The notes: generated from the letters alone by a model not told the origin. A DNA stretch of 64,000 nt from a candidate division BRC1 bacterium ADurb.Bin183 (GCA_002070185.1 MWCT01000008.1:57625-121624); one strand, 5' to 3'. Shown: positions 41,008-58,401, counted from the first letter of the stretch. Translations and numbers: made by a program.

Positions 41008-41679
41008 ATGGATTCTTTACTGATGGAAAAGCAGGTTGTCTCAAAAAAAAGAGTCGCTGACCATGGCGAAGTTTACACCGGCAAGCGGGAAGTCAACGCC
41101 ATGCTCGATCTGGTAAAACAGGAAACTGAGCGGATTGACTCCCGTTTTCTGGAGCCTGCCTGCGGCACGGGCAATTTTCTGACGGAAATCTTGGAGCGGA
41201 AACTGCGTGTGGTCATAAAACGCTACGGTAAAAGCCAGTTGGAATATGAGCGTTATGCCGTGCTTGTTGTCTCAAGTCTTTATGGCATAGATATTTTGGA
41301 AGATAACGTTATAGAATGCCGCAAACGGCTCTTTGAAATTTTTAATCAGAAATACACCAGTCTTTTCAAAAAGACGGCAAAAGTAAGTGTTCAAAAAGCA
41401 GTTAGATTTATCCTTGAAAAAAATATCATTTGGGGCGATGCGCTCACTTTGATGACAGTCGGCAAGAATCCGGAGCCGATTGTTTTTTCCGAATGGTCTG
41501 CAGTCAACGGCGATATGCTTAAACGAAGGGATTTTACTTTCCATGGCTTACTTGAGCATGAGGCGATAAAAGAACTGCCGCTGTTTTCTGACCTTGGCGA
41601 AGATGTATTTATCCCCAAACCCATAAAAGAGTATCCTTTGATTCATTTTTTGAGGATTGCCGATGCTGAAAAAGAATAA
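41008..41679 (+). CDS. SAM-methyltransferase-like protein, a paralog of the N-terminal lobe of the downstream MTase, lacking a catalytic (D/N/S)PP(Y/F/W) motif
   Basis: HGEVYTGKREVNAMLDLV (motif X-like), FLEPACGTGNFL (motif I), YGIDILEDN (motif II) and IIWGDALT (motif III). Where NPPY is expected the sequence is GKNPEPIVF (41467-41478). The protein ends at 223 aa without a TRD. Confidence 0.65.
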   Translation: MDSLLMEKQVVSKKRVADHGEVYTGKREVNAMLDLVKQETERIDSRFLEPACGTGNFLTEILERKLRVVIKRYGKSQLEYERYAVLVVSSLYGIDILEDNVIECRKRLFEIFNQKYTSLFKKTAKVSVQKAVRFILEKNIIWGDALTLMTVGKNPEPIVFSEWSAVNGDMLKRRDFTFHGLLEHEAIKELPLFSDLGEDVFIPKPIKEYPLIHFLRIADAEKE

Positions 41680-43192
41680 TTACAATCCTGATGTCCTGAA
41701 CTGTCTTGCCAATCTCTCCAGCGACGAGGTCTTCACCCCGCCGCAACTGGCAAATCAGATATTGGACCTTCTGCCGCAATCTCTTTGGAGTAATCCCGAA
41801 GTTCGATTCCTTGACCCGGCTTGCAAGACCGGCGTTTTCCTGCGCGAGATAGCAAAGCGGCTCGATAAAGGATTAGAGCCGAAAATCCCTGAACGGCAGG
41901 AGCGAATTAATCACATCATGAAAAAGCAGATATTCGGAATTGCAATCACGGAGTTGACCGGACTTCTTTCGCGTCGCTCGCTTTATTGCTCCAAAAATGC
42001 CAATAGCAAATATTCCGTCTGCACTGTATTCAATAACACGCAGGGCAATATCCGCTTCAAGCGCATCGAGCACAATTGGAGGGATGGCAGATGTCTGGAC
42101 TGCGGCGCAAATGAGGAAAATTATAAACGCGGTGAAGAACTGGAGACACACGCCTATCAATTTATCCATGCACATAAACCGGAGGGAATCTTTAATATGA
42201 AATTCGATGTCATTATCAGCAACCCGCCGTATCAGTTGAGCGATGGAGGAGGTACGGGTATGAGTGCGCGCCCAATCTACCAATTTTTTGTTCAGCAAGC
42301 AAAAAAAATCAACCCTCGCTATTTAAGTATGATTATTCCTTCGCGTTGGTTTGCGGGTGGAAAAGGGTTGCAAGAATTTCGAGCTGAAATGCTTAGCGAC
42401 AATAGGATGCGAAAACTTGTTGATTTTGAAAGTGCTTCTGAAGTGTTTCCTGGTGTTGACATTGCTGGAGGAGTTTGTTACTTCCTTTGGGAACGCGATA
42501 CACAGGGGCCTTGTGAAATTACTAGCTTTTATGAAGGGAAACCTGTTATATCTGTTAGGTCACTAAATGAATTCCCAACATTTATAAGAAACAGCCAAGC
42601 TGTACCGATTATCCGTAAAATACTTGCAAAGAATGAGAACAATAATAAGCGCCTTAACGAAAGAGTATCTTCCAGAAAGCCTTTCGGCTTACCATCAAAT
42701 TATGCTCCTAAAAGCAAAGGAGTTCCTTGCTGGTTCACACAAAAAATTGGCTTGAAATTTGCAAGTAGTTCTGATATTTTAGATGAACATGGCTTTTTGA
42801 ATAAATGGAAATTATTGATACCGTTCGCGCCTATCGCAGGTCAAACTGATTTTTCAAAACCAGTCGGGTTTTACTATGATGGAAACGTAAGAGTTGCCAA
42901 GCCGGGCGAGTGCTGTACAGAGTCGTGGCTAGTAGCATGTGCCTTCTCCACAAAAGAGAAAGTTCTTTCATTCAAATCGTATCTTTTTACTAAAACTGTT
43001 CGCTTTCTGTTATTACAAATGGTGATGTCACAAAATGTTACCAGACAGAATTTTTACTTCATTCCAGATTTAGAAGATTACGAAGGTGAATATACCGACG
43101 AACTGCTTCGCAAAAGGTGGGGCGTTTCTGATGAAGAGTGGAATTTTATAGATTCGAAAATTCGCACTATCGGCGAGACCAGCGATGAGTAA
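41663..43192 (+). CDS. Eco57I-like gamma-class N6-adenine DNA methyltransferase with a C-terminal target-recognition region
   Basis: DEVFTPPQLANQILDLL, FLDPACKTGVFL (motif I, from 41813) and FDVIISNPPYQ (NPPY at 42221-42232). I prefer the ATG at 41663, after gagga. It overlaps the upstream gene by 17 nt. Confidence 0.85.
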   Translation: MLKKNNYNPDVLNCLANLSSDEVFTPPQLANQILDLLPQSLWSNPEVRFLDPACKTGVFLREIAKRLDKGLEPKIPERQERINHIMKKQIFGIAITELTGLLSRRSLYCSKNANSKYSVCTVFNNTQGNIRFKRIEHNWRDGRCLDCGANEENYKRGEELETHAYQFIHAHKPEGIFNMKFDVIISNPPYQLSDGGGTGMSARPIYQFFVQQAKKINPRYLSMIIPSRWFAGGKGLQEFRAEMLSDNRMRKLVDFESASEVFPGVDIAGGVCYFLWERDTQGPCEITSFYEGKPVISVRSLNEFPTFIRNSQAVPIIRKILAKNENNNKRLNERVSSRKPFGLPSNYAPKSKGVPCWFTQKIGLKFASSSDILDEHGFLNKWKLLIPFAPIAGQTDFSKPVGFYYDGNVRVAKPGECCTESWLVACAFSTKEKVLSFKSYLFTKTVRFLLLQMVMSQNVTRQNFYFIPDLEDYEGEYTDELLRKRWGVSDEEWNFIDSKIRTIGETSDE

Positions 43193-44366
43193 GCCCAAGA
43201 GCAAAGCCCTTGCGGCAAAACCCCCTGCCCTCTTCGACCGCATCGTTTCAATACTCGAACAGGCGCGGGGCAATGTTGCCCGGGCGGTCAACACAAATAT
43301 GGTGCTGGCGTATTGGCTGATTGGACGGGAGATTGTAGAAGAAATCCAGCGCGGCAAAGGACGGGCGAAGTATGGCGAAAAGGTCATAGAAGAACTTTCA
43401 GCGAGGCTGACCGGGCGGTATGGGAAGGGTTTCTCCAAGCCGGTGTTATGGAATTTCCGACAGTTCTATCTAGCGTATCCCGACAGGGCGGAGATTCTCT
43501 TCCCACTGGGGAGAGAATCGACCGATGTCGAAAAACTCTCCCCAGTGGGTGGGGAATTGGTTTCAACCAAAAGCCACCTACCAGACAGCGAATCTTCGCT
43601 GGGGTTTTCTCCTCAGCTTTCCTGGTCACACTACCGGGCGTTAATGCGCGTAGAGAACCGGAAAGCGCGCGATTTCTATGAGCGCGAGGCGATCGCGGGC
43701 GGTTGGGATAAGCGCACACTGGAACGGCAAATTATCACGCAATACTACGAGCGTTGTCTGCACAGCCAGCAACCAGAAAAAATAATCGCTGAAGGACGGA
43801 ATCTACAGAAAACGGAAGCCTGCGCAGCCGATACGCTCAAAAATCCTTATGTTCTGGAATTTCTGGGCTATCCGAACTTTGCTGAACTACGTGAGTCAGA
43901 CCTGGAAACGGCAATCATCACTCATCTGCAACGCTTCCTTTTGGAGTTGGGAAACGGATTCGCTTTCGTCGCGCGCCAGAAGCATATCCGCATTGAGGAG
44001 GATGACCGCTTTATTGATCTCGTTTTCTATCACTGCCGATTAAAGTTCTATCTGCTGATTGATCTGAAACTGGGAAAGCTGTCGCATGAGGATGTCGGGC
44101 AAATGGACGGCTATGTGCGGATGTTCGACGGTCTTTTTACCGCGCCGGATGATAACCCGACTATCGGCTTAATTCTCTGCACGGAAAAGAGCGACACTGT
44201 TGCCCGCTACTCGGTGCTGAACGACCGCAAACAGATTTTCGCATCCAAGTATCTGCCGAATCTGCCCAGCGAAGAACAATTGCGGTTGGAAATCAACAGG
44301 GAACGCCGGCTGATCGAGGCAGCGCTGGAGGAACGCCGGAAATTGCCGGAAGGGAGACAATCATGA
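43185..44366 (+). CDS. DUF1016/YhcG-family PD-(D/E)XK nuclease-domain protein
   Basis: The N-terminal helical region is NTNMVLAYWLIGREIVEE...YGEKVIEELSARL. The C-terminal nuclease core is GFAFVARQKHI...FIDLVFYH...LLIDLKLGKL (DLK at 44061-44069). There is an 8-nt overlap (ATGAGTAA) with the MTase stop. Confidence 0.85.
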   Translation: MSKPKSKALAAKPPALFDRIVSILEQARGNVARAVNTNMVLAYWLIGREIVEEIQRGKGRAKYGEKVIEELSARLTGRYGKGFSKPVLWNFRQFYLAYPDRAEILFPLGRESTDVEKLSPVGGELVSTKSHLPDSESSLGFSPQLSWSHYRALMRVENRKARDFYEREAIAGGWDKRTLERQIITQYYERCLHSQQPEKIIAEGRNLQKTEACAADTLKNPYVLEFLGYPNFAELRESDLETAIITHLQRFLLELGNGFAFVARQKHIRIEEDDRFIDLVFYHCRLKFYLLIDLKLGKLSHEDVGQMDGYVRMFDGLFTAPDDNPTIGLILCTEKSDTVARYSVLNDRKQIFASKYLPNLPSEEQLRLEINRERRLIEAALEERRKLPEGRQS

Positions 44367-46897
44367 GTAAGGAGTTTTTTCCACAACGCCCGGCATCGCA
44401 GCCCACAATCTACGCTTATGAGGATACTAATCCAATGTATGCCGGCATGCTCAAGGTAGGCTACACTTCAAAGGGGAATGCGCGGGAGCGTGTGGCGGCG
44501 CAGTATCCAACACTCCGACCTGGAGAACCGCCCTATAACATCGTCCTTGAAGAATCTGCAATGCGCCGCGATGGCACAACCTTCACCGACCGCGACGTTC
44601 ACCGCATGCTGCGCATCAATGGAATTAAGAATCCAGCTGGCGAGTGGTTCTGTTGCTCGGTTGAGCAGGTTAAGTCAGCGATCGTTGCTGTGCGGGAGGG
44701 ACAACTGTTTGAAGAACAGAGATCTCTGGATTTCAAAATGCGCCCCGAGCAGATAGAAGCTGTCGAAAAAACGGCGTCATACTTTGCAAGTTGGCTTAAA
44801 GAGGAAGGCAACCAAAATAAATCGCCGCACTTTCTCTGGAATTGCAAGATGCGCTTCGGCAAAACCTTTGCCGCCTACCAACTTGCCAAAAAAATGAATT
44901 GGAAAAAAATCCTCGTTCTGACATTCAAGCCGGCTGTCCAGAGCGCTTGGGAAGAAGACTTATTAAGTCATGTGGATTTCCAAGGCTGGCAGTTTATCAA
45001 GCCCGGCGGTTTGACTTATGAACAAGCCGACAAGAAGAAACCAATAGTCTGCTTCGGGTCTTTTCAGGATTATCTTGGGCGCAACCCCGCCACAGGCGGC
45101 ATTAAAACCAAAAATGAATGGGTGCATACAACCAATTGGGATTGTGTGATTCTGGACGAATACCATTATGGCGCATGGCGTGAAAAAGCCAAAGAACTAT
45201 ACGACGCAGAGGATGAAAATGAGCGGGCGTTCGCCGAAGGTCAAGGCGCAGAATTCTTAAAAAATACAGAAGAAGAAATCGGGGATTTCCTGCCCATCAC
45301 AACGAACCACTATCTTTACCTATCCGGCACGCCGTTCCGCGCTATTGCATCTGGCGAATTTATTGAAGAACAAATTTTCAACTGGACATATTCGGATGAA
45401 CAAAAGGCAAAAGAAGAATGGACAGGACCGGATAATCCTTATGCCGCATTGCCGCGCATGGTGCTGATGACATATCAGTTGCCGGAAGCCATCCGCAAAA
45501 TTGCCCTTATGGGCGAGTTCAACGAATTTGAACTAAACGAATTCTTTCGCGCTGAAGGTATTGGAAAAGATGCCCAATTCAAACATGAAAATGAAGTGCA
45601 AAAGTGGTTGGATCTCATACGCGGCACAACTCGCGAAACGACGTTAGACTATTTAAAAATGGGAGCGCAAAAACCGCCGCTTCCTTTTTCAGATGTAAGG
45701 TTATTGAACGTGCTCTCTCATACATTCTGGTATCTACCGAGTGTTGCTTCCTGCTACGCCATGAGCAATCTAATGGCAAAAAGGCAAAACACATTCTATC
45801 ATGACTATAAGGTGATTGTTGCGGCGGGCAGCGCCGCGGGGACGGGCGTTAAAGCCTTGCCGCCAGTGCTGGATGCTATGAATGAGCCCCTCAAGACGAA
45901 AACCATCACACTTTCCTGTGGCAAATTGACGACCGGTGTTACAGTCCGTCCGTGGGCGGGCATATTCATGCTGCGAAAATTGAGCAGTCCAGAAAGCTAT
46001 TTCCAATCTGCTTTCCGGGTGCAGAATCCGTGGGTTATTAAAAATCCAGATGGAACCGAGCCTAATAAAGAGTTGTTCCTCAAAGACGAATGTTATATTT
46101 TTGATTTTGCTCCCGACCGTGCCCTGCAACAACTGGCGGAGTATGCTTGCCGCCTGAATGTGAACGAGAGCAGTCCGGAAAAAAATATCGAGGAATTCAT
46201 CCGCTTCCTGCCAGTGCTGGCTTATGACGGCAGTTCCATGAAGCAGATTGACGCCGCCGGCATTCTCGACATGGCAATGAGCGTCACAACGGCAACCCTG
46301 CTTGCGCGCCGCTGGGAGAGCGCCCTATTAGTGAATGTGGATAATGAGACACTGCGCCGGCTAATGAATAATGAAGAAGCCATGCAAGCATTGATGAGCA
46401 TTGAGGGATTCCGCCGTCTAAATCAGGAAATTGAGACTATCATCAACAAATCCGAGGCAGTGAAGAAACTCAAGCGTGAAGCCAATGACCGTAAACTTTC
46501 CAAAAATGAGAAGCGTCAGTTGTCGGAAGAGGAAAAAGAATACAAGAGCAAGCGCAAACAAATTCAGGAAAAACTGATTAAATTTGCCACGCGAATCCCA
46601 TTGTTTATGTATCTGACAGATTACCGTGAACGCAAACTGGAAGATGTCATCACCCAGTTAGAACCGGGTCTGTTCAAAAAAGTGACCGGTTTGGCTGTCA
46701 AGGATTTTGAACTTCTTGTAAGCCTTGGATTATTTAATCGAGCTTTGATGAATCAAGCAGTCCTATACTTCAAACGGTATGAAGACCCTAGCTTGGTTTA
46801 TACTGGAATTGATAAACATGAAGAGGAAAAGATAGGGCTTTTTGACACTGTTATAAGCAAAGATGATTTCGATGCAATATTCGTAAACCAAAATTGA
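44363..46897 (+). CDS. T5orf172 (GIY-YIG-like) domain fused to an SF2 (ResIII/DEAH-type) helicase
   Basis: The N-terminus has IYAY...MLKVGYTS...RERV...GEWF. The helicase motifs are RFGKT (44858-44866), ILDEYH (45155-45166), LSGTPFR and QSAFRVQN. A Lys/Glu-rich coiled-coil-like segment lies near aa 690-740. There is a 4-nt ATGA overlap with the upstream gene. Confidence 0.8.
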   Translation: MSKEFFPQRPASQPTIYAYEDTNPMYAGMLKVGYTSKGNARERVAAQYPTLRPGEPPYNIVLEESAMRRDGTTFTDRDVHRMLRINGIKNPAGEWFCCSVEQVKSAIVAVREGQLFEEQRSLDFKMRPEQIEAVEKTASYFASWLKEEGNQNKSPHFLWNCKMRFGKTFAAYQLAKKMNWKKILVLTFKPAVQSAWEEDLLSHVDFQGWQFIKPGGLTYEQADKKKPIVCFGSFQDYLGRNPATGGIKTKNEWVHTTNWDCVILDEYHYGAWREKAKELYDAEDENERAFAEGQGAEFLKNTEEEIGDFLPITTNHYLYLSGTPFRAIASGEFIEEQIFNWTYSDEQKAKEEWTGPDNPYAALPRMVLMTYQLPEAIRKIALMGEFNEFELNEFFRAEGIGKDAQFKHENEVQKWLDLIRGTTRETTLDYLKMGAQKPPLPFSDVRLLNVLSHTFWYLPSVASCYAMSNLMAKRQNTFYHDYKVIVAAGSAAGTGVKALPPVLDAMNEPLKTKTITLSCGKLTTGVTVRPWAGIFMLRKLSSPESYFQSAFRVQNPWVIKNPDGTEPNKELFLKDECYIFDFAPDRALQQLAEYACRLNVNESSPEKNIEEFIRFLPVLAYDGSSMKQIDAAGILDMAMSVTTATLLARRWESALLVNVDNETLRRLMNNEEAMQALMSIEGFRRLNQEIETIINKSEAVKKLKREANDRKLSKNEKRQLSEEEKEYKSKRKQIQEKLIKFATRIPLFMYLTDYRERKLEDVITQLEPGLFKKVTGLAVKDFELLVSLGLFNRALMNQAVLYFKRYEDPSLVYTGIDKHEEEKIGLFDTVISKDDFDAIFVNQN

Positions 46898-53058: not shown

Positions 53059-56000
53059 ATGAAAATCGCAGATTCCCTTTTTAAAATAGCGTCCATTCTT
53101 ATATTTTTGAATCTATCCCATTTAGCCGCCCGCGGGCAATTCACGAAAAATGATTGGGACGCGCTTCATCGCTCTTTAGAACGCTCAACGGCGACTTTTA
53201 CCGTCGGCGAAAATTCCGCCACATCGCGCCCCTTAGAACAACTCTGCGGATTAAAGCCGCCAAAGCAAATCTTGAAAAACGCTCACGTCTTTGAGACTCC
53301 GATAATAACGCGGGGCTTCCCCTCAAAATTTGACTGGAGAGAGGTCGCCGGGTGTCCTCCAATCAAAGACCAGAAAAATTGCGGAGCATGCTGGGCTTTT
53401 GCTACCATTGCGCCGCTTGAATGCAATATCCTTTACAAAGATGGGCGCAATATCAATCTTTCCGAACAATGGTTGATTTCATGCAATAAGGATAGCTGGG
53501 ATTGCCTAGGCGGTTGGTGGGCTTATAAATACTTAATAAACCCAGGCGCCGTCTTAGAGTCTGATTGCCCCTATCGTGGTGGAGTCGCCCCATGCGGAGA
53601 AAATTATTTTTATCCTTATCGAATCAAATCTTGGGATTTTGTCCATACTGAGTATGCCGTTGCGCCGATTGACAAAATCAAACAAGCCGTTATGGATTAT
53701 GGACCTGTTTCAACAGCCATCTATGTGGGAAACGCCTTCCGGGCTTATACGGGCGGCATCTTTAATATCAATGAATCGGGAACTGATTACGTAAATCACG
53801 GGGTCACTATAGTTGGCTGGGATGACAACATCGGAGGAGGATGCTGGATTATACGTAACTCGTGGGGCTCTGACTGGGGTATCGGCGGTTATATGTATAT
53901 CAAATACGGGCTCTCCAATGTCGGTTATTCTGCCAACTACGTCATTTATGAAAGCGGAGCGGATTTTGTTTCTTATACAATTGATGACGATATGAACGGC
54001 ATGAGCTGCGGAAATGGGAACAAACTTCCCGAACCCGGTGAAACAATCGAATTAGGAATTGTATTAAAGAATAACACAGAGAATGTATTAACCGACATCG
54101 AGGCTCGGATTTCATCGGATAGCATGTATCTTGATTATATAACCTCTGATACCGTAACATTTGAGGACATGGCGCCGAATGAGGAAAAGCATTCATTAAA
54201 TAAATATGTCATCACGCTTGCTGACCAGATATCGCAAGGCAAAAAGTTAAAATTCAATTTGGATATTAACAGCCATTCGAGCCAGTTCCACACCCATTTC
54301 ATAATGCCTATCCATGCCGATCCTGCCATGGACATTTCACCCGATTCATTGAACGTTGTCATCGTCCCCAATGATACGGTCGAAAAAATAATCACCGTTG
54401 GAAACACAGGATTCAACCCTCTGAATTTCCGTTGCGGCGCTTTAGATACAACCCTTTTTGGAGCACAAATGAACGCATTGCTTGAAGACTCCGCGCATTT
54501 TGGAGGTCCGGACAATTTCGGTTATTTGTGGATAGACAGCGAAACAAATGACGGCGTAATTTTCAATTGGGTTGAGATAAACCAGATTGGCGCTCCCTTG
54601 ATTTTGGGCGATGATGACCATGCAGAAATCGCGCTCCCATTTTCATTTCCCTTTTACGGCTCTTTGAAAAATAAGATGCTCGTATCTTCAAACGGTTATC
54701 TCACATTCGGAGAAGACGGCGATTCGTATTCTTTCGGCAATATCCCGTTTCCCACCGAGCCCAATGATTTCATAGCGCCCTTTTGGTGCGATTTGAACCC
54801 TGATTCCGGCGCCCATGGAAGCATCTTTTTTTATCATGACATCGCCAATCATCGGATAATTATCGAATGGGACAGCGTTGAGCATAACGATTTTAAAAAC
54901 CCCGAAACTTTTCAAGCCATTCTCATCGAAGACGGGCGTATCATATTTCAATACAAAAAAGTAAACTCAGGGAATAAATGCACGGTCGGAATTGAGAATG
55001 CCGACGGTAATGACGGACTCCAGATAGCCTTTCAAAAAAATTATCTGCGCGATGGACTTGCCGTCCTTATTCAGCGACATGCCTCATGGATAACATTCTC
55101 TCCCCCATCCGGAACAATCAAACCCGATGAAACCATGCAAATCAAAGTTGCGGTTGAAAGCGCCTCATTATCAACCGGAACACATACAGCACGATTGATT
55201 TTCAACTCCAACGATCCGAAAACACCTTGCGCAATACCGCTCAATATTATCAAGGCTGGCAGCAACCCATATATTGAACATACTCCGCACGCCGATACAT
55301 ACAATACCGTTAGTCCATACAAAATTATTGCCGAATTTTTTTCAAATGCTAATCTTGCAGAATCAAAACTTTTTATTTTTTGGAGAACAAACGATGATGA
55401 GGCATTTTCCACCGCCCCCCTTATCCATGTAACCGAAAACAGATACGATGCTATTATTCCCGCGCAACCAATGGGAAGCGTTATCGAATATTATTTATTT
55501 GCCGAAAACATCAACGGTGACGCCGCAACTCTGCCGCAAAATGCGCCCGAGTGCTCATTTAAATTCTCCATCATGAACCGCCCCATCATAAATGTTCATG
55601 CAGAAAATCCAACCGAATTCTCATTCCCGCCCAATGAACGGAATACCGTTTTCAATCTCTTCTCCGTTGGAAATGACGGAACGCTGCCTTTGTTTTATGA
55701 AATAACCCGCCCGCCCCAGACATCGTGGATTGTTATCAATCCACAATCCGGTTTGCTTGAATGCGGCGATAGCCGCGCAATGTCCGTTGCCATTGATACA
55801 AAAGATTTACTGCCGGGTGATTATTATGCGGATCTGCTTATTTCCAGCAACGATCCAATAAATCCGCAAATAGCTCTGTCGGTTAAATTGTCCGTCAACG
55901 AGCAAATACCCAACCGCAAATGGACCTTCATGGTTTATATGGATGGAGACAACGACCTCGAAAAACAAGCCATTAAAGACTTTCTTGAAATCACTAACGC

Positions 56001-58401
56001 CAATCTCAATTCCAGCGTTGCAGTCCTCATCCAGTTTGATCGGGTTAAAGGCTATGATAACCAATTTGGCGATTGGACTATTTGCCATCGCTTTGCCGCT
56101 CAACAAGGGATGACTCCCCTCGAATCTCTTGCAGCGCCTGATTGGGGCGATGGACGAGGCGGACGAGAAGTGAATATGGGCGATCCCAAAACTCTGGCTG
56201 ATTTTATCTCTTGGGGCGCTGAAAATTTCCCATCGCCTCACTACGCCCTTATTCTTTGGGATCATGGCGGCGGATGGCGCAAAGAACCCGCCCCGATTCT
56301 GCGCGACATCTGCAAAGATATCACCAACAATGACATCCTTTCCACAAAAGAAATGGGCAACGCCCTTGAAGCGTTGGCAGATAAATTTGACATCATTGCC
56401 ATGGATGCCTGCAATATGGGAATGCTTGAAGTCGCATTTGAGATACGAAATAAAGGCTCCATAATGATTGCATCGGAAGGGAGTGTTCCTCTTGAAGGTC
56501 TGCCTTATACGGAAATCCTTAATGATTTATGCACAAGCCCGTCCCTTTCTGCCGCTCAATTTTCTAAAAATATTATCGAGCATTATTCTCAAAAATATCG
56601 CGGGGTGTCTTCCCTTTCCGCTTGCGACCTTGAAAAAGTGGAAGCCCTTGTCCATGAAATAAGCTCATTCGCATCAACTGTTATCTCCAATCGGGAGCTC
56701 ATTCCCAGCATTGCTCATGCCCGCCGACAGATTCAATCTCATCACGTCCTTGATGAAACCTGCGATATACTTGATTTTGCAAACACCCTCCATCGAACAT
56801 GCAAAACCCCCGCAATAAAAGAACCTATCGCGTCAATCCAAAACGCGTTGAAAGATTTGGTCATATCATCCTATTCCGCCAACTGCAAACCTGCTAATGG
56901 ATTATCGTTTTATTTTCCAAATCCTTCATCATACAAAAAAATTGACGTTGGCTACTCATGCAAGAATATTCAGTTTGCCTGCGAATCAACTTGGGATGAT
57001 ATGCTTCCGCTGATTCTCGGCTCAGACACAAATCCGCCGCTGATTCAACATTCGCCTCTCAAAGATACGTTGGATACTTCTGGACCCTATCAGATTGAAG
57101 CTGCGATTTCTGGTGTTTCCGCCATAACAAATGTCAACCTTTATTGGAGCAAAGGGCTCAACTCAATTGAAGTCATTCCTATGAACCGCGGCTCCGAACG
57201 CTACTTTGCCTCCTTCGGCAGCGGCGGGGTCATTGGAGAGCAATTCAGTTATCGAATCGAAGCCATAGACATCAACGGAAATACTGGCTATTTTCCCGGA
57301 CCAACCGAAGAACAATTCTGGCGTTTTGATATTGCAGAACCTTTGCAAGGTCTTTGGGAAACTTTCGAAACGGGAAAAATGGATTTAACTAACACCCGAT
57401 TGACATTCATTCCCGACCCATCCAGCCCGCAAAGATACCGTGTTTGCTCTGAAAAAATAACCGATTGGAGTATAAATCCTTATGGCGGGCAGAAGATTCA
57501 TCTGTATGATAATGATTTCAAAGAAATAAATATCGCAGAGCACAGGGTCTTTCTCTACGGAACGCCATATTCCAAGTTTTTTATTGGCTCAAATGGTTAT
57601 ATCACATTTGTCTCAGGCGATTGCGATAACTCTCCCGTCGCGTTGAAACACTTTCAAATCCCGCGTGTTGCTCTTTTTTATGCCAACTTCGCATCTTTTT
57701 CAGAGGGGATGATTACTTGTGAACAGATGCGGGATCGCATTGTAGTTTCCTATATCTGCGTCAACAATAACAATATGCAGGCGGAACTGGGATATGATGG
57801 AATAATTCGCCTTACATGGCTTTCCATGGATTTGCGTAAAGGGATTGTGGGGCTCTCAAATGGACAAGGTGTTCCAATGGGCAAAATGACGGATTTTTCA
57901 AAAATGCAAACATGTTTGCCTCCAACGCCGCCTGAGATTGAGTTTGAAACTCTACCGGATTTTGCAGGCGGATTCTACACCATTGCTTTCACCATCAAAG
58001 ACGAACAATCCAACCCTTGCAACATACTTGCGGAATTTTCCGCTGATGGCGGCGCACACTGGCAAACGCCAATCATTATACAAGAAAAAAATAACGGGAC
58101 TCGTTTTTTGGCCGCACCAACCGGAAAAAGATTCGCCTTAAAATGGAATACTTTACAAGATTTGGGCTCAGGGACTTTTCCGAACATAATATTTAGAATC
58201 ACTGCATATAATATGTTGATAAGCGGATTGCCTGCGGATACGCCAAATTTTTCAATACAAAATCCAAGCCGAATTGAATTATTGGACTATATACTTGCCC
58301 GAAGATTAAACAGCGCCGAAGAAACAACAAAACTTGACGTTAATCACGACGGCATGATAGGCGTCCCCGACATTTTGTTTCTTATCAATAATGGATTATG
58401 A
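53059..58401 (+). CDS. Giant secreted multidomain protein: papain-like C1 peptidase + clostripain-like C11 peptidase + NIDO-like/Ig-like modules + C-terminal dockerin-like repeat
   Basis: It has a signal peptide. The C1 domain shows QKNCGACWAF (Cys codon 53389-53391), VNHGVTIVGWD and IRNSWGSDWG. The C11 domain shows WTFMVYMDGDNDLE (from 55921), LILWDHGGGW (His 56263-56265) and IIAMDACNMG (Cys 56410-56412). There are two SNGY(L/I)TF segments and a C-terminal DVNHDGMIGVPDILFLIN. Confidence 0.85.
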   Translation: MKIADSLFKIASILIFLNLSHLAARGQFTKNDWDALHRSLERSTATFTVGENSATSRPLEQLCGLKPPKQILKNAHVFETPIITRGFPSKFDWREVAGCPPIKDQKNCGACWAFATIAPLECNILYKDGRNINLSEQWLISCNKDSWDCLGGWWAYKYLINPGAVLESDCPYRGGVAPCGENYFYPYRIKSWDFVHTEYAVAPIDKIKQAVMDYGPVSTAIYVGNAFRAYTGGIFNINESGTDYVNHGVTIVGWDDNIGGGCWIIRNSWGSDWGIGGYMYIKYGLSNVGYSANYVIYESGADFVSYTIDDDMNGMSCGNGNKLPEPGETIELGIVLKNNTENVLTDIEARISSDSMYLDYITSDTVTFEDMAPNEEKHSLNKYVITLADQISQGKKLKFNLDINSHSSQFHTHFIMPIHADPAMDISPDSLNVVIVPNDTVEKIITVGNTGFNPLNFRCGALDTTLFGAQMNALLEDSAHFGGPDNFGYLWIDSETNDGVIFNWVEINQIGAPLILGDDDHAEIALPFSFPFYGSLKNKMLVSSNGYLTFGEDGDSYSFGNIPFPTEPNDFIAPFWCDLNPDSGAHGSIFFYHDIANHRIIIEWDSVEHNDFKNPETFQAILIEDGRIIFQYKKVNSGNKCTVGIENADGNDGLQIAFQKNYLRDGLAVLIQRHASWITFSPPSGTIKPDETMQIKVAVESASLSTGTHTARLIFNSNDPKTPCAIPLNIIKAGSNPYIEHTPHADTYNTVSPYKIIAEFFSNANLAESKLFIFWRTNDDEAFSTAPLIHVTENRYDAIIPAQPMGSVIEYYLFAENINGDAATLPQNAPECSFKFSIMNRPIINVHAENPTEFSFPPNERNTVFNLFSVGNDGTLPLFYEITRPPQTSWIVINPQSGLLECGDSRAMSVAIDTKDLLPGDYYADLLISSNDPINPQIALSVKLSVNEQIPNRKWTFMVYMDGDNDLEKQAIKDFLEITNANLNSSVAVLIQFDRVKGYDNQFGDWTICHRFAAQQGMTPLESLAAPDWGDGRGGREVNMGDPKTLADFISWGAENFPSPHYALILWDHGGGWRKEPAPILRDICKDITNNDILSTKEMGNALEALADKFDIIAMDACNMGMLEVAFEIRNKGSIMIASEGSVPLEGLPYTEILNDLCTSPSLSAAQFSKNIIEHYSQKYRGVSSLSACDLEKVEALVHEISSFASTVISNRELIPSIAHARRQIQSHHVLDETCDILDFANTLHRTCKTPAIKEPIASIQNALKDLVISSYSANCKPANGLSFYFPNPSSYKKIDVGYSCKNIQFACESTWDDMLPLILGSDTNPPLIQHSPLKDTLDTSGPYQIEAAISGVSAITNVNLYWSKGLNSIEVIPMNRGSERYFASFGSGGVIGEQFSYRIEAIDINGNTGYFPGPTEEQFWRFDIAEPLQGLWETFETGKMDLTNTRLTFIPDPSSPQRYRVCSEKITDWSINPYGGQKIHLYDNDFKEINIAEHRVFLYGTPYSKFFIGSNGYITFVSGDCDNSPVALKHFQIPRVALFYANFASFSEGMITCEQMRDRIVVSYICVNNNNMQAELGYDGIIRLTWLSMDLRKGIVGLSNGQGVPMGKMTDFSKMQTCLPPTPPEIEFETLPDFAGGFYTIAFTIKDEQSNPCNILAEFSADGGAHWQTPIIIQEKNNGTRFLAAPTGKRFALKWNTLQDLGSGTFPNIIFRITAYNMLISGLPADTPNFSIQNPSRIELLDYILARRLNSAEETTKLDVNHDGMIGVPDILFLINNGL

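Follow-up and report, generated by a model that had tools for sequence, protein, structure and literature searches.

A cassette of four same-strand genes (hereinafter A, B, C, and D), lying at positions 41008-46897 of a 64,000-nucleotide (nt) stretch of DNA from the candidate division BRC1 bacterium ADurb.Bin183 (GCA_002070185.1, MWCT01000008.1:57625-121624; the whole stretch is hereinafter the window), is best explained, with a probability that we put at about 0.62, as a three-gene ATP-dependent restriction-modification (R-M) system, A-B-D, that carries C as an unrelated passenger. By analogy with characterized enzymes, we lean toward reading this system as a split, Type ISP/Type I-like one armed with a GIY-YIG-type nuclease, uncharacterized and unnamed thus far. 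A previous reading made from the sequence of the window alone (the sequence-only reading) had described an R-M-like defense cassette made up of all four genes. Domain content and conservation support its R-M-like nature; the four-gene composition does not hold, with C absent from about 80% of the related loci and other genes filling the same junction.

The conserved A-B-D unit

The genes and their predicted domains are as follows, all on the + strand; lengths are in amino acids (aa), SAM denotes S-adenosylmethionine, and SF2 is helicase superfamily 2.

41008-41679, +: gene A, 223 aa, predicted SAM-binding half-methyltransferase, core subunit
41663-43192, +: gene B, 509 aa counted from the ATG at 41663, predicted gamma-class N6-adenine methyltransferase of the Eco57I family
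42488-43192, +: C-terminal half of B (residues 276-509), variable and swappable, putative target-recognition domain
43185-44366, +: gene C, 393 aa, DUF1016_N and YhcG_C PD-(D/E)XK domains, predicted accessory cargo
44363-46897, +: gene D, 844 aa, predicted T5orf172 nuclease domain and SF2 motor
44363-44707, +: D residues 1-115, T5orf172 (GIY-YIG superfamily) predicted nuclease domain
44732-46342, +: D residues about 124-660, SF2 (Res/Snf2-like) ATPase, predicted translocase
46343-46897, +: D residues about 661-844, helical C-terminal region, likely docking or coupler toward the methylase

Read directly from the sequence, the open reading frames (ORFs) overlap, as previously described, by 17 nt between A and B (stop codon TAA of A at 41677-79 against the ATG of B at 41663), 8 nt between B and C (ATGAGTAA), and 4 nt between C and D (ATGA). 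The motifs quoted for the four products are all present in the translations, with Pfam in agreement for B, C, and D (Eco57I, DUF1016_N, T5orf172, and ResIII). At the 5′ end of B, an in-frame TTG at 41657 precedes the ATG.

A scan of one genome per species (185,579 species genomes) showed that at least 304 carry a close relative of D; the 80 that were kept are 63-80% identical to it and come from many bacterial phyla, plus one metagenome-assembled genome (MAG) labeled Heimdallarchaeota. The D family exceeds 8000 clusters at 90% identity and comprises 4089 clusters at 50% identity; the 120 best-listed clusters are 76-80% identical to D, with a single exception at 99%, a protein of a Candidatus Sumerlaeota MAG. 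Members occur in Sumerlaeota, Bacteroidota, Bacillota, and Patescibacteria, and on plasmids of enterococci, listeriae, and lactococci (81 plasmid records in all carry relatives). A phage origin is unlikely, as relatives are found in only 5/50,697 phage records. Metagenome and genome neighborhoods were compared, and tblastn over 89 loci agreed with them; 64 nonredundant loci were used for the inserts between B and D, and 60 nonredundant loci have A, B, and D at full length. Wherever the upstream DNA sufficed, the genes lie in the order A, B, D on one strand, overlapping or nearly abutting, and this order is present in 60/60 of the nonredundant full-length loci from many phyla. Its recurrence in related loci places the arrangement beyond chance. 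The co-occurrence anticipated by the sequence-only reading is thus borne out for A, B, and D, and fails for C, whose DUF1016-type gene is present in only about 13/64 nonredundant loci. By these sequence comparisons, the conserved unit consists of three genes and not four.

Like the sequence-only reading, we take B to be the methylase, and by its sequence it is a complete gamma-class N6-methyladenine (m6A) enzyme. Pfam places it in the Eco57I family (1e-38; MmeI_Mtase scored only 0.003, under its cut-off), PADLOC returned MTase_II (8e-39) and REase_MTase_IIG (6.6e-31, model positions 863-1317), and the translation contains FLDPACKTG and NPPYQ, with motif I at residue about 50 followed by NPPY at residue 188. 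Residues 1-275, which hold both motifs, are conserved and residues 276-509 are variable, the conservation falling from 0.6-0.75 in the N-terminal part to 0.14-0.46 in the C-terminal half. Compared with the window, the C-terminal half is 60-69% identical in nine loci and 22-37% identical in 51, with none between, against 59-82% for the N-terminal half of B and 64-81% for D in the same 60 loci. Pairwise identities between loci tell the same: those of the N-terminal half correlate with those of D at r = 0.70, those of the C-terminal half at r = 0.18. For example, two loci (L086 and L087) share 99% identity in D, 98% in A, and 84% in the N-terminal half of B, and only 22% in its C-terminal half. 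As it is exchanged between otherwise near-identical systems, the C-terminal half of B appears to behave as a target-recognition domain. Between the SAM-binding motifs and NPPY, B (41663-43192) also has the invariant residues C109, H137, C144, and C147, a possible zinc-binding insert; in a pairwise alignment this Cys/His segment is missing from a fused relative from Enterococcus (see below).

D is predicted to join a T5orf172/GIY-YIG-type nuclease domain to an SF2 motor with intact ATPase motifs, in accord with the nuclease-translocase proposed for it earlier. Pfam matches comprise T5orf172 (2e-09), MUG113 of the GIY-YIG clan (2e-06), and ResIII (5e-07), and the translation shows RFGKTF, DEYH, and LSGTPF. 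An alignment of relatives shows conservation throughout the length of the protein. Among the GIY-YIG-type positions, Y17, K31, and R43 stay unchanged even in relatives of 30% identity, and G33, H80, and E94 are invariant in the alignment of the fused family, E94 being nearly so in the other alignment. The ATPase residues G166/K167, D265/E266/H268, G322/T323, Q548, and R552 do not vary either, with S321 close to invariant. The helical C-terminus gave no nuclease match and likely serves as a docking or coupling region toward the methylase. PADLOC matched positions 147-800 of its REBASE-derived Type IIG model PDLC03626 to D (3.5e-35). A Foldseek search with the predicted structure of D placed SauUSI, ZorD, and Snf2-family motors on top at a template-modeling (TM) score of about 0.3; these generic SF2/Snf2 matches support a dsDNA translocase-like fold and nothing finer. 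T5orf172 is a working nuclease fold in Gp88 of phage ICP1 (PMC8263062), and PF10544 stands among the R-M-associated domains in a table that cites Makarova 2011 and Doron 2018 (PMC7251935).

The third component, A, retains the SAM-binding half of a methyltransferase: motifs X, I, II, and III are conserved and the catalytic motif IV is missing. Its translation contains FLEPACGTGNFL, and its sole Pfam match is a sub-threshold one to MmeI_Mtase (22.7 bits vs a cut-off of 27). Conservation is concentrated in GEVxT, FLEPACGxGnFL, YGxDiLxDN, and GDAL, the NPEP of the window protein not being conserved. A is a paralog of the N-terminus, the SAM-binding half, of B (32% identity, E-value 6e-10), and its family comprises over 8000 clusters of about 218-229 aa; the best 120 listed homologs are 192-265 aa long, mostly 216-229, and none of them is fused to B. 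Two origins or roles for A were set aside: the thousands of conserved homologs of 218-229 aa, none of the 120 listed being fused to B, rule out a pseudogene fragment, and the lack of covariation with the recognition half of B rules out a specificity subunit (r = 0.08; partial r = -0.08). In the same comparison A and D gave r = 0.76, by which A is seen to co-evolve with D and not with the recognition domain. Hence, of the previous description of A as a noncatalytic regulatory or specificity partner, the noncatalytic partner stands, conserved in 60/60 full loci and devoid of motif IV, and the specificity role falls away. Against the PDB, A had its best match in HsdM at an unusable E-value of 0.01. 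An alternative start of A at the ATG 41023 would give 218 aa instead of the 223 aa from ATG 41008; both lengths are used in public gene calls for near-identical proteins, and no obvious Shine-Dalgarno sequence was seen at either start.

A further line of evidence comes from Bacillota, where plasmids and chromosomes of Enterococcus, Lactococcus, Listeria, Halobacillus, and many more carry fused versions of the system. In these, an A-like gene of 230-253 aa is followed by a gene of 1446-1456 aa, the two abutting or overlapping by up to 8 nt. A and the small protein share 39% identity (E-value 2e-36), and the 1456-aa protein aligns with D over residues 25-641 and 864-947 (33%, 8e-95) and with B over residues 965-1452 (25%, 8e-27), giving the order nuclease-motor-methylase with the A-like gene upstream; other single-chain representatives likewise read T5orf172-ResIII-Eco57I. 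D residues 734-803 align to residues 864-947 of the fused protein, just before its methylase part starts at about 965. The PADLOC model PDLC03626 ('REase_MTase_IIG', 1359 positions) takes D and B side by side, at 147-800 and 863-1317, leaves 1-146 unmatched, and matches the fused proteins about as well, by which a third relative is already filed as Type IIG. The fusion suggests that D and B work as one enzyme, with the C-terminal helices of D adjoining the methylase, and the presence of A beside both split and fused forms points to A as a constant partner. In the Lactococcus cremoris plasmid p1196B, the N-terminus encoded by one such gene (L091:2730-7097) matches DUF4145 and not T5orf172, a hint that this nuclease/sensor module may be exchangeable within the family.

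Gene C and the B|D junction

Gene C clearly belongs to the DUF1016/YhcG family (Pfam DUF1016_N 1.7e-41 and YhcG_C 1.7e-53; PADLOC defense candidate PDC-S02, 3.3e-135). On the comparative evidence, it is interchangeable cargo, inserted exactly at the start codon of D, and not a component of the system. Nothing separates B from D in Kosmotoga, Thermopirellula, and most other loci, where the two genes overlap by 4 nt; only 25/64 nonredundant loci have one or more same-strand inserts between them, about 60% being insert-free. Pfam searches of 40 inserts recovered DUF1016/YhcG (12, counted apart from an ortholog of C in Raymondbacteria), RhuM (2), KilA-N (2), Bro-N (2), and Fic (1), together with DUF4160 + DUF2442, DUF433 + DUF5615, and HARE-HTH. 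The Raymondbacteria locus has its ortholog of C at the same position (74% identity); in most of the other DUF1016 inserts identity to C reaches only 27-38%, for which reason they are likely to be independent acquisitions. DUF1016, RhuM, and Fic genes are known from between the core genes of Type I R-M operons (PMC9881135), and the repertoire at B|D is that reported there.

The sequence around C has the form that such an insertion would leave. In insert-free loci the B|D junction reads ...GGAGACnAAnnnnATGAGTAAAGAATTTTTCCC or ...CCAATGGAGACnAAnnnnATGAGTAAAGAATTTTTCCC. In the window a duplicated junction, GAGACnnnnATGAGTAAG, stands on both sides of C:

43175-43193, +: junction copy 1, GAGACCAGCGATGAGTAAG, before C; putative ancestral B|D junction, now the start of C
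44354-44371, +: junction copy 2, GAGACAATCATGAGTAAG, before D; would restore the start of D after the insert

Both C and D begin with ATGAGTAAG, each preceded by GAGAC, as the sequence-only reading had noticed, such that the first three codons of C are those of D. This repeated junction is best read as a scar of the insertion of C. GC content also differs, at 52.5% in C (60% at third codon positions) vs 43% in A and B, and together with the junction duplication marks C as an insert. At other inserts the support for such a duplication is modest: a start prefix of at least 8 nt is common to the insert and its own D in 4/20 insert-bearing loci vs 7.6% of cross-locus controls (permutation p ~0.04).

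Inside C, a 22-nt inverted repeat (43494-43557; 86% complementary, 20-nt spacer, about codons 104-125) falls where C exceeds the DUF1016_N and PDC-S02 models by about 35 residues. Instead of DUF1016, small gene pairs of the kind seen in toxin-antitoxin modules (DUF4160/DUF2442 and DUF433/DUF5615 being among the families matched), or Fic/RhuM/KilA-N/Bro-N genes, occupy B|D at L082:6389-6950, L063:4884-5387, and L086:5488-6963. A|B forms a second insertion site, with a PDDEXK_3 gene of 127-138 aa at L034:2796-3209, L057:3851-4264, and L058:1110-1490.

Relation to known systems and predicted mechanism

The closest parallel in architecture is with the Type ISP enzymes LlaGI and LlaBIII. The fused relatives present the same order of N-terminal nuclease, SF2 motor, gamma-class adenine (m6A) methylase, and variable C-terminal recognition domain. 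In both, the recognition domain is exchanged against a near-identical background, as between L086 and L087. As described in PMC3553950, LlaBIII and LlaGI share over 95% identity across their first three domains, differ mainly in the recognition domain, which is the fourth, and cleave by translocation and collision. Our system differs in its nuclease, which is T5orf172/GIY-YIG-like where theirs is an N-terminal Mrr-family PD-(D/E)XK domain, in being split in the window into B and D, with B encoded first, where theirs is a single polypeptide, and in the extra conserved subunit A. Single-sequence and profile searches of all PDB chains returned no Type ISP enzyme. Structures of LlaGI and LlaBIII are present in the PDB.

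Of the systems previously considered, Type I R-M shares with the cassette the order of nuclease before motor, as in HsdR, and a core-gene junction that hosts DUF1016, RhuM, Fic, and similar genes. Unlike Type I, the cassette has no HsdS, the recognition domain being part of B, the nuclease has another fold, and the methylase is Eco57I-like and not HsdM. Type III systems likewise pair a methylase with a ResIII-type ATPase-nuclease in separate genes of one operon; however, Mod is beta-class with an internal recognition domain, where in B motif I precedes NPPY and the C-terminal half is the variable one, and the nuclease of Res is a C-terminal PD-(D/E)XK domain, where that of D is N-terminal and of GIY-YIG type. 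The Type IIG model PDLC03626 calls for one protein, and D and B match it as two. The DnmA(YeeA)-YeeB-YeeC system of Bacillus subtilis and relatives combines, in one conserved operon, a gamma-class m6A methylase that includes a recognition domain, an SF2 helicase, and a T5orf172/GIY-YIG protein, parts for which a Type I-like R-M function was put forward in 2009 (PMC2731913). It is set apart by architecture: its three proteins are separate and its methylase MmeI-like, whereas here T5orf172 and the helicase form one protein, the methylase belongs to the Eco57I family, and the half-methylase A is extra. Deletion of dnmA and yeeB homologs in Vibrio crassostreae raised the sensitivity to some phage subclades, according to a study cited in PMC9973331. 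BREX, DISARM, Hma, and MADS were rejected, as their marker proteins (PglZ and BrxC/L; DrmA/B; HmaA/C; other Mad proteins) are missing and the flanks are housekeeping genes; the matches to PglX and MAD2 (MADS2) in PADLOC and NCBIfam were weak and at motif-I level only.

By sequence, then, the cassette is not a canonical member of Type ISP, Type III, Type I, or YeeABC. NCBIfam (June 2026) had no family for C or D and no strong match in the set, and no named system with this architecture was found in the literature. The earlier statement that it fits no canonical architecture is sound with respect to Type I, Type III, BREX, DISARM, and Hma, and overstated otherwise, given the Type ISP order of the fused relatives, the match of PDLC03626 to D and B, and the proposal of the parts in 2009. 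R-M by a methylase, a helicase, and a GIY-YIG nuclease has been a known concept since then; the present variant is unnamed and widespread. Most novel are the half-methylase, dead yet conserved, and the junction at which cargo seems to be captured.

On the model of the Type ISP and Type I enzymes, B would methylate adenine in a specific, probably asymmetric, site on the host DNA. On meeting the unmethylated site, the B-D complex would switch to ATP-driven translocation along dsDNA, after which the T5orf172 domain of D would cut. A would be a noncatalytic partner of the methylase and motor, structural or SAM-sensing, and would support or gate their activities much as an inactive paralog can assist an active methyltransferase; it would not set specificity. 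C would be one among many alternative cargo genes at B|D, as in Type I operons.

Alternative explanations and genomic setting

Several points weigh against an A-B-D R-M system with a passenger. Related loci were gathered by way of D; AlphaFold modeled D with low confidence (predicted local distance difference test score, pLDDT, 62.5; predicted TM score 0.44), and so too A (pLDDT 60), whose model yielded only noise in a fold search; neither A, B, nor D was detectably related to any solved structure in sequence and profile searches of the PDB; the role of A as a partner subunit is one that we infer; and the B. subtilis DnmA-YeeB-YeeC system methylates DNA with no restriction of phage or transformation (PMC9973331). 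This last case also favors a rival explanation, in which the cassette marks DNA without cleaving it, either as an orphan or epigenetic methylase whose partners are relics or through a BREX-like exclusion that blocks replication and leaves the DNA uncut; the nearest solved relative of B by profile is indeed the BREX methylase PglX/BrxX, at an E-value of only 0.011. We consider such marking quite improbable, since D keeps 63-80% identity across phyla and its nuclease-type and ATPase residues do not vary, implying strong selection on both activities, the swapping of recognition domains suggests an arms race, and PglZ, BrxC, and BrxL are absent. A role in the service of mobile elements, whereby methylation and helicase activity would protect or establish plasmid or integrative and conjugative element (ICE) DNA and not defend the host, would suit the fused forms, which lie on conjugative plasmids and in ICE-like regions next to genes for RadC, ArdC-N, MobL, and Toprim proteins, and the plasmid records noted above. 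However, in the window and at many other loci the neighbors are housekeeping genes and none nearby belongs to a mobile element, a purely protective methylase would not be expected to come with a conserved nuclease domain or with swapping of recognition domains, and R-M systems are themselves commonly plasmid-borne; this role seems to us very improbable.

The remaining alternatives concern C and A. The obligate four-gene system of the sequence-only reading, with the DUF1016 nuclease C as an integral effector beside D, draws on the four overlapping same-strand genes of the window and on the same four genes in Raymondbacteria loci. It is the least probable of the explanations weighed, since the comparison of loci contradicts it: Kosmotoga, Thermopirellula, and most of the 60 other loci lack C and show the 4-nt B/D overlap in its place, and the junction duplication and GC difference mark C as an insert. 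The sequence-only reading was thus right on the nature of the cassette and wrong on the number of its genes and on A as a possible specificity partner. A looser coupling of C to the R-M core, for instance as a latent back-up nuclease firing when the complex is inhibited, is unlikely yet has more in its favor. The overlaps on both sides of C (8 nt and 4 nt) would couple its translation, it has borrowed the first three codons of D, the Raymondbacteria ortholog keeps the same position, and DUF1016, a PADLOC defense candidate, recurs inside R-M operons. A precedent for coupled cargo is PrrC, which lies within the Type I operon of EcoprrI. Against coupling stand the insert-free majority of loci, the unrelated genes that fill the site in about half of the cargo-bearing ones, and the low identity of most DUF1016 inserts to C. 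Tentatively, and with considerable doubt, we also entertain a bolder form of the A-B-D interpretation: the split and fused forms might together make up a distinct, unnamed class of ATP-dependent R-M systems whose GIY-YIG-type nuclease-motor and methylase have an obligatory need for the dead SAM-binding half-methylase, which, as a pseudo-enzyme, could allosterically gate methylation against restriction or sense depletion of SAM by phage, and B|D might be a dedicated landing site at which defense cargo is captured by duplicating the start of D.

The family is large, and neither a curated NCBIfam name nor a solved structure covers A-B-D. Its characterization would add a GIY-YIG-armed, Type ISP-like branch to the classification of R-M systems, would explain many 'orphan' Eco57I-type methylases in methylome data, and would put to the test the part that a half-methylase, dead yet conserved, plays in an R-M complex; annotation pipelines, for their part, would gain the rule that an embedded DUF1016 gene is not counted in the system.

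The neighbors of the cassette are those named in the sequence-only reading, namely a minus-strand nucleoside-salvage pair (pyrimidine-nucleoside phosphorylase and PNP) on one side and RtcB on the other, all housekeeping genes. As it had also reported for direct repeats and an integrase, searches around the cassette for flanking direct or inverted repeats and for a recombinase or integrase turned up nothing convincing; no tRNA lies within about 10 kb, and neither the cassette nor its flanks contain an HsdS-like ORF or a Methylase_S match. Further downstream in the window is an ORF of 1780 aa (53059-58401, + strand).

Elsewhere, a D relative of 75% identity is found on a 3.3-kb contig binned as Heimdallarchaeota, an Asgard archaeon (L016), and two further MAG records bear the implausible titles Helicobacter pylori PMSS1 (L048) and Chitinophaga pinensis (L033); these three cases point to horizontal transfer or to problems of binning and labeling. 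Other defense-type genes seen beside related loci include one for a TIR_2 protein directly upstream of A in Kosmotoga (L001:1140-2258; also L002-L004), one for an 873-aa NB-ARC protein next to the fused system of Listeria (L093:10345-12966), and those for HipA_C and HIRAN proteins by the related locus of Halobacillus (L095:9871-11477).

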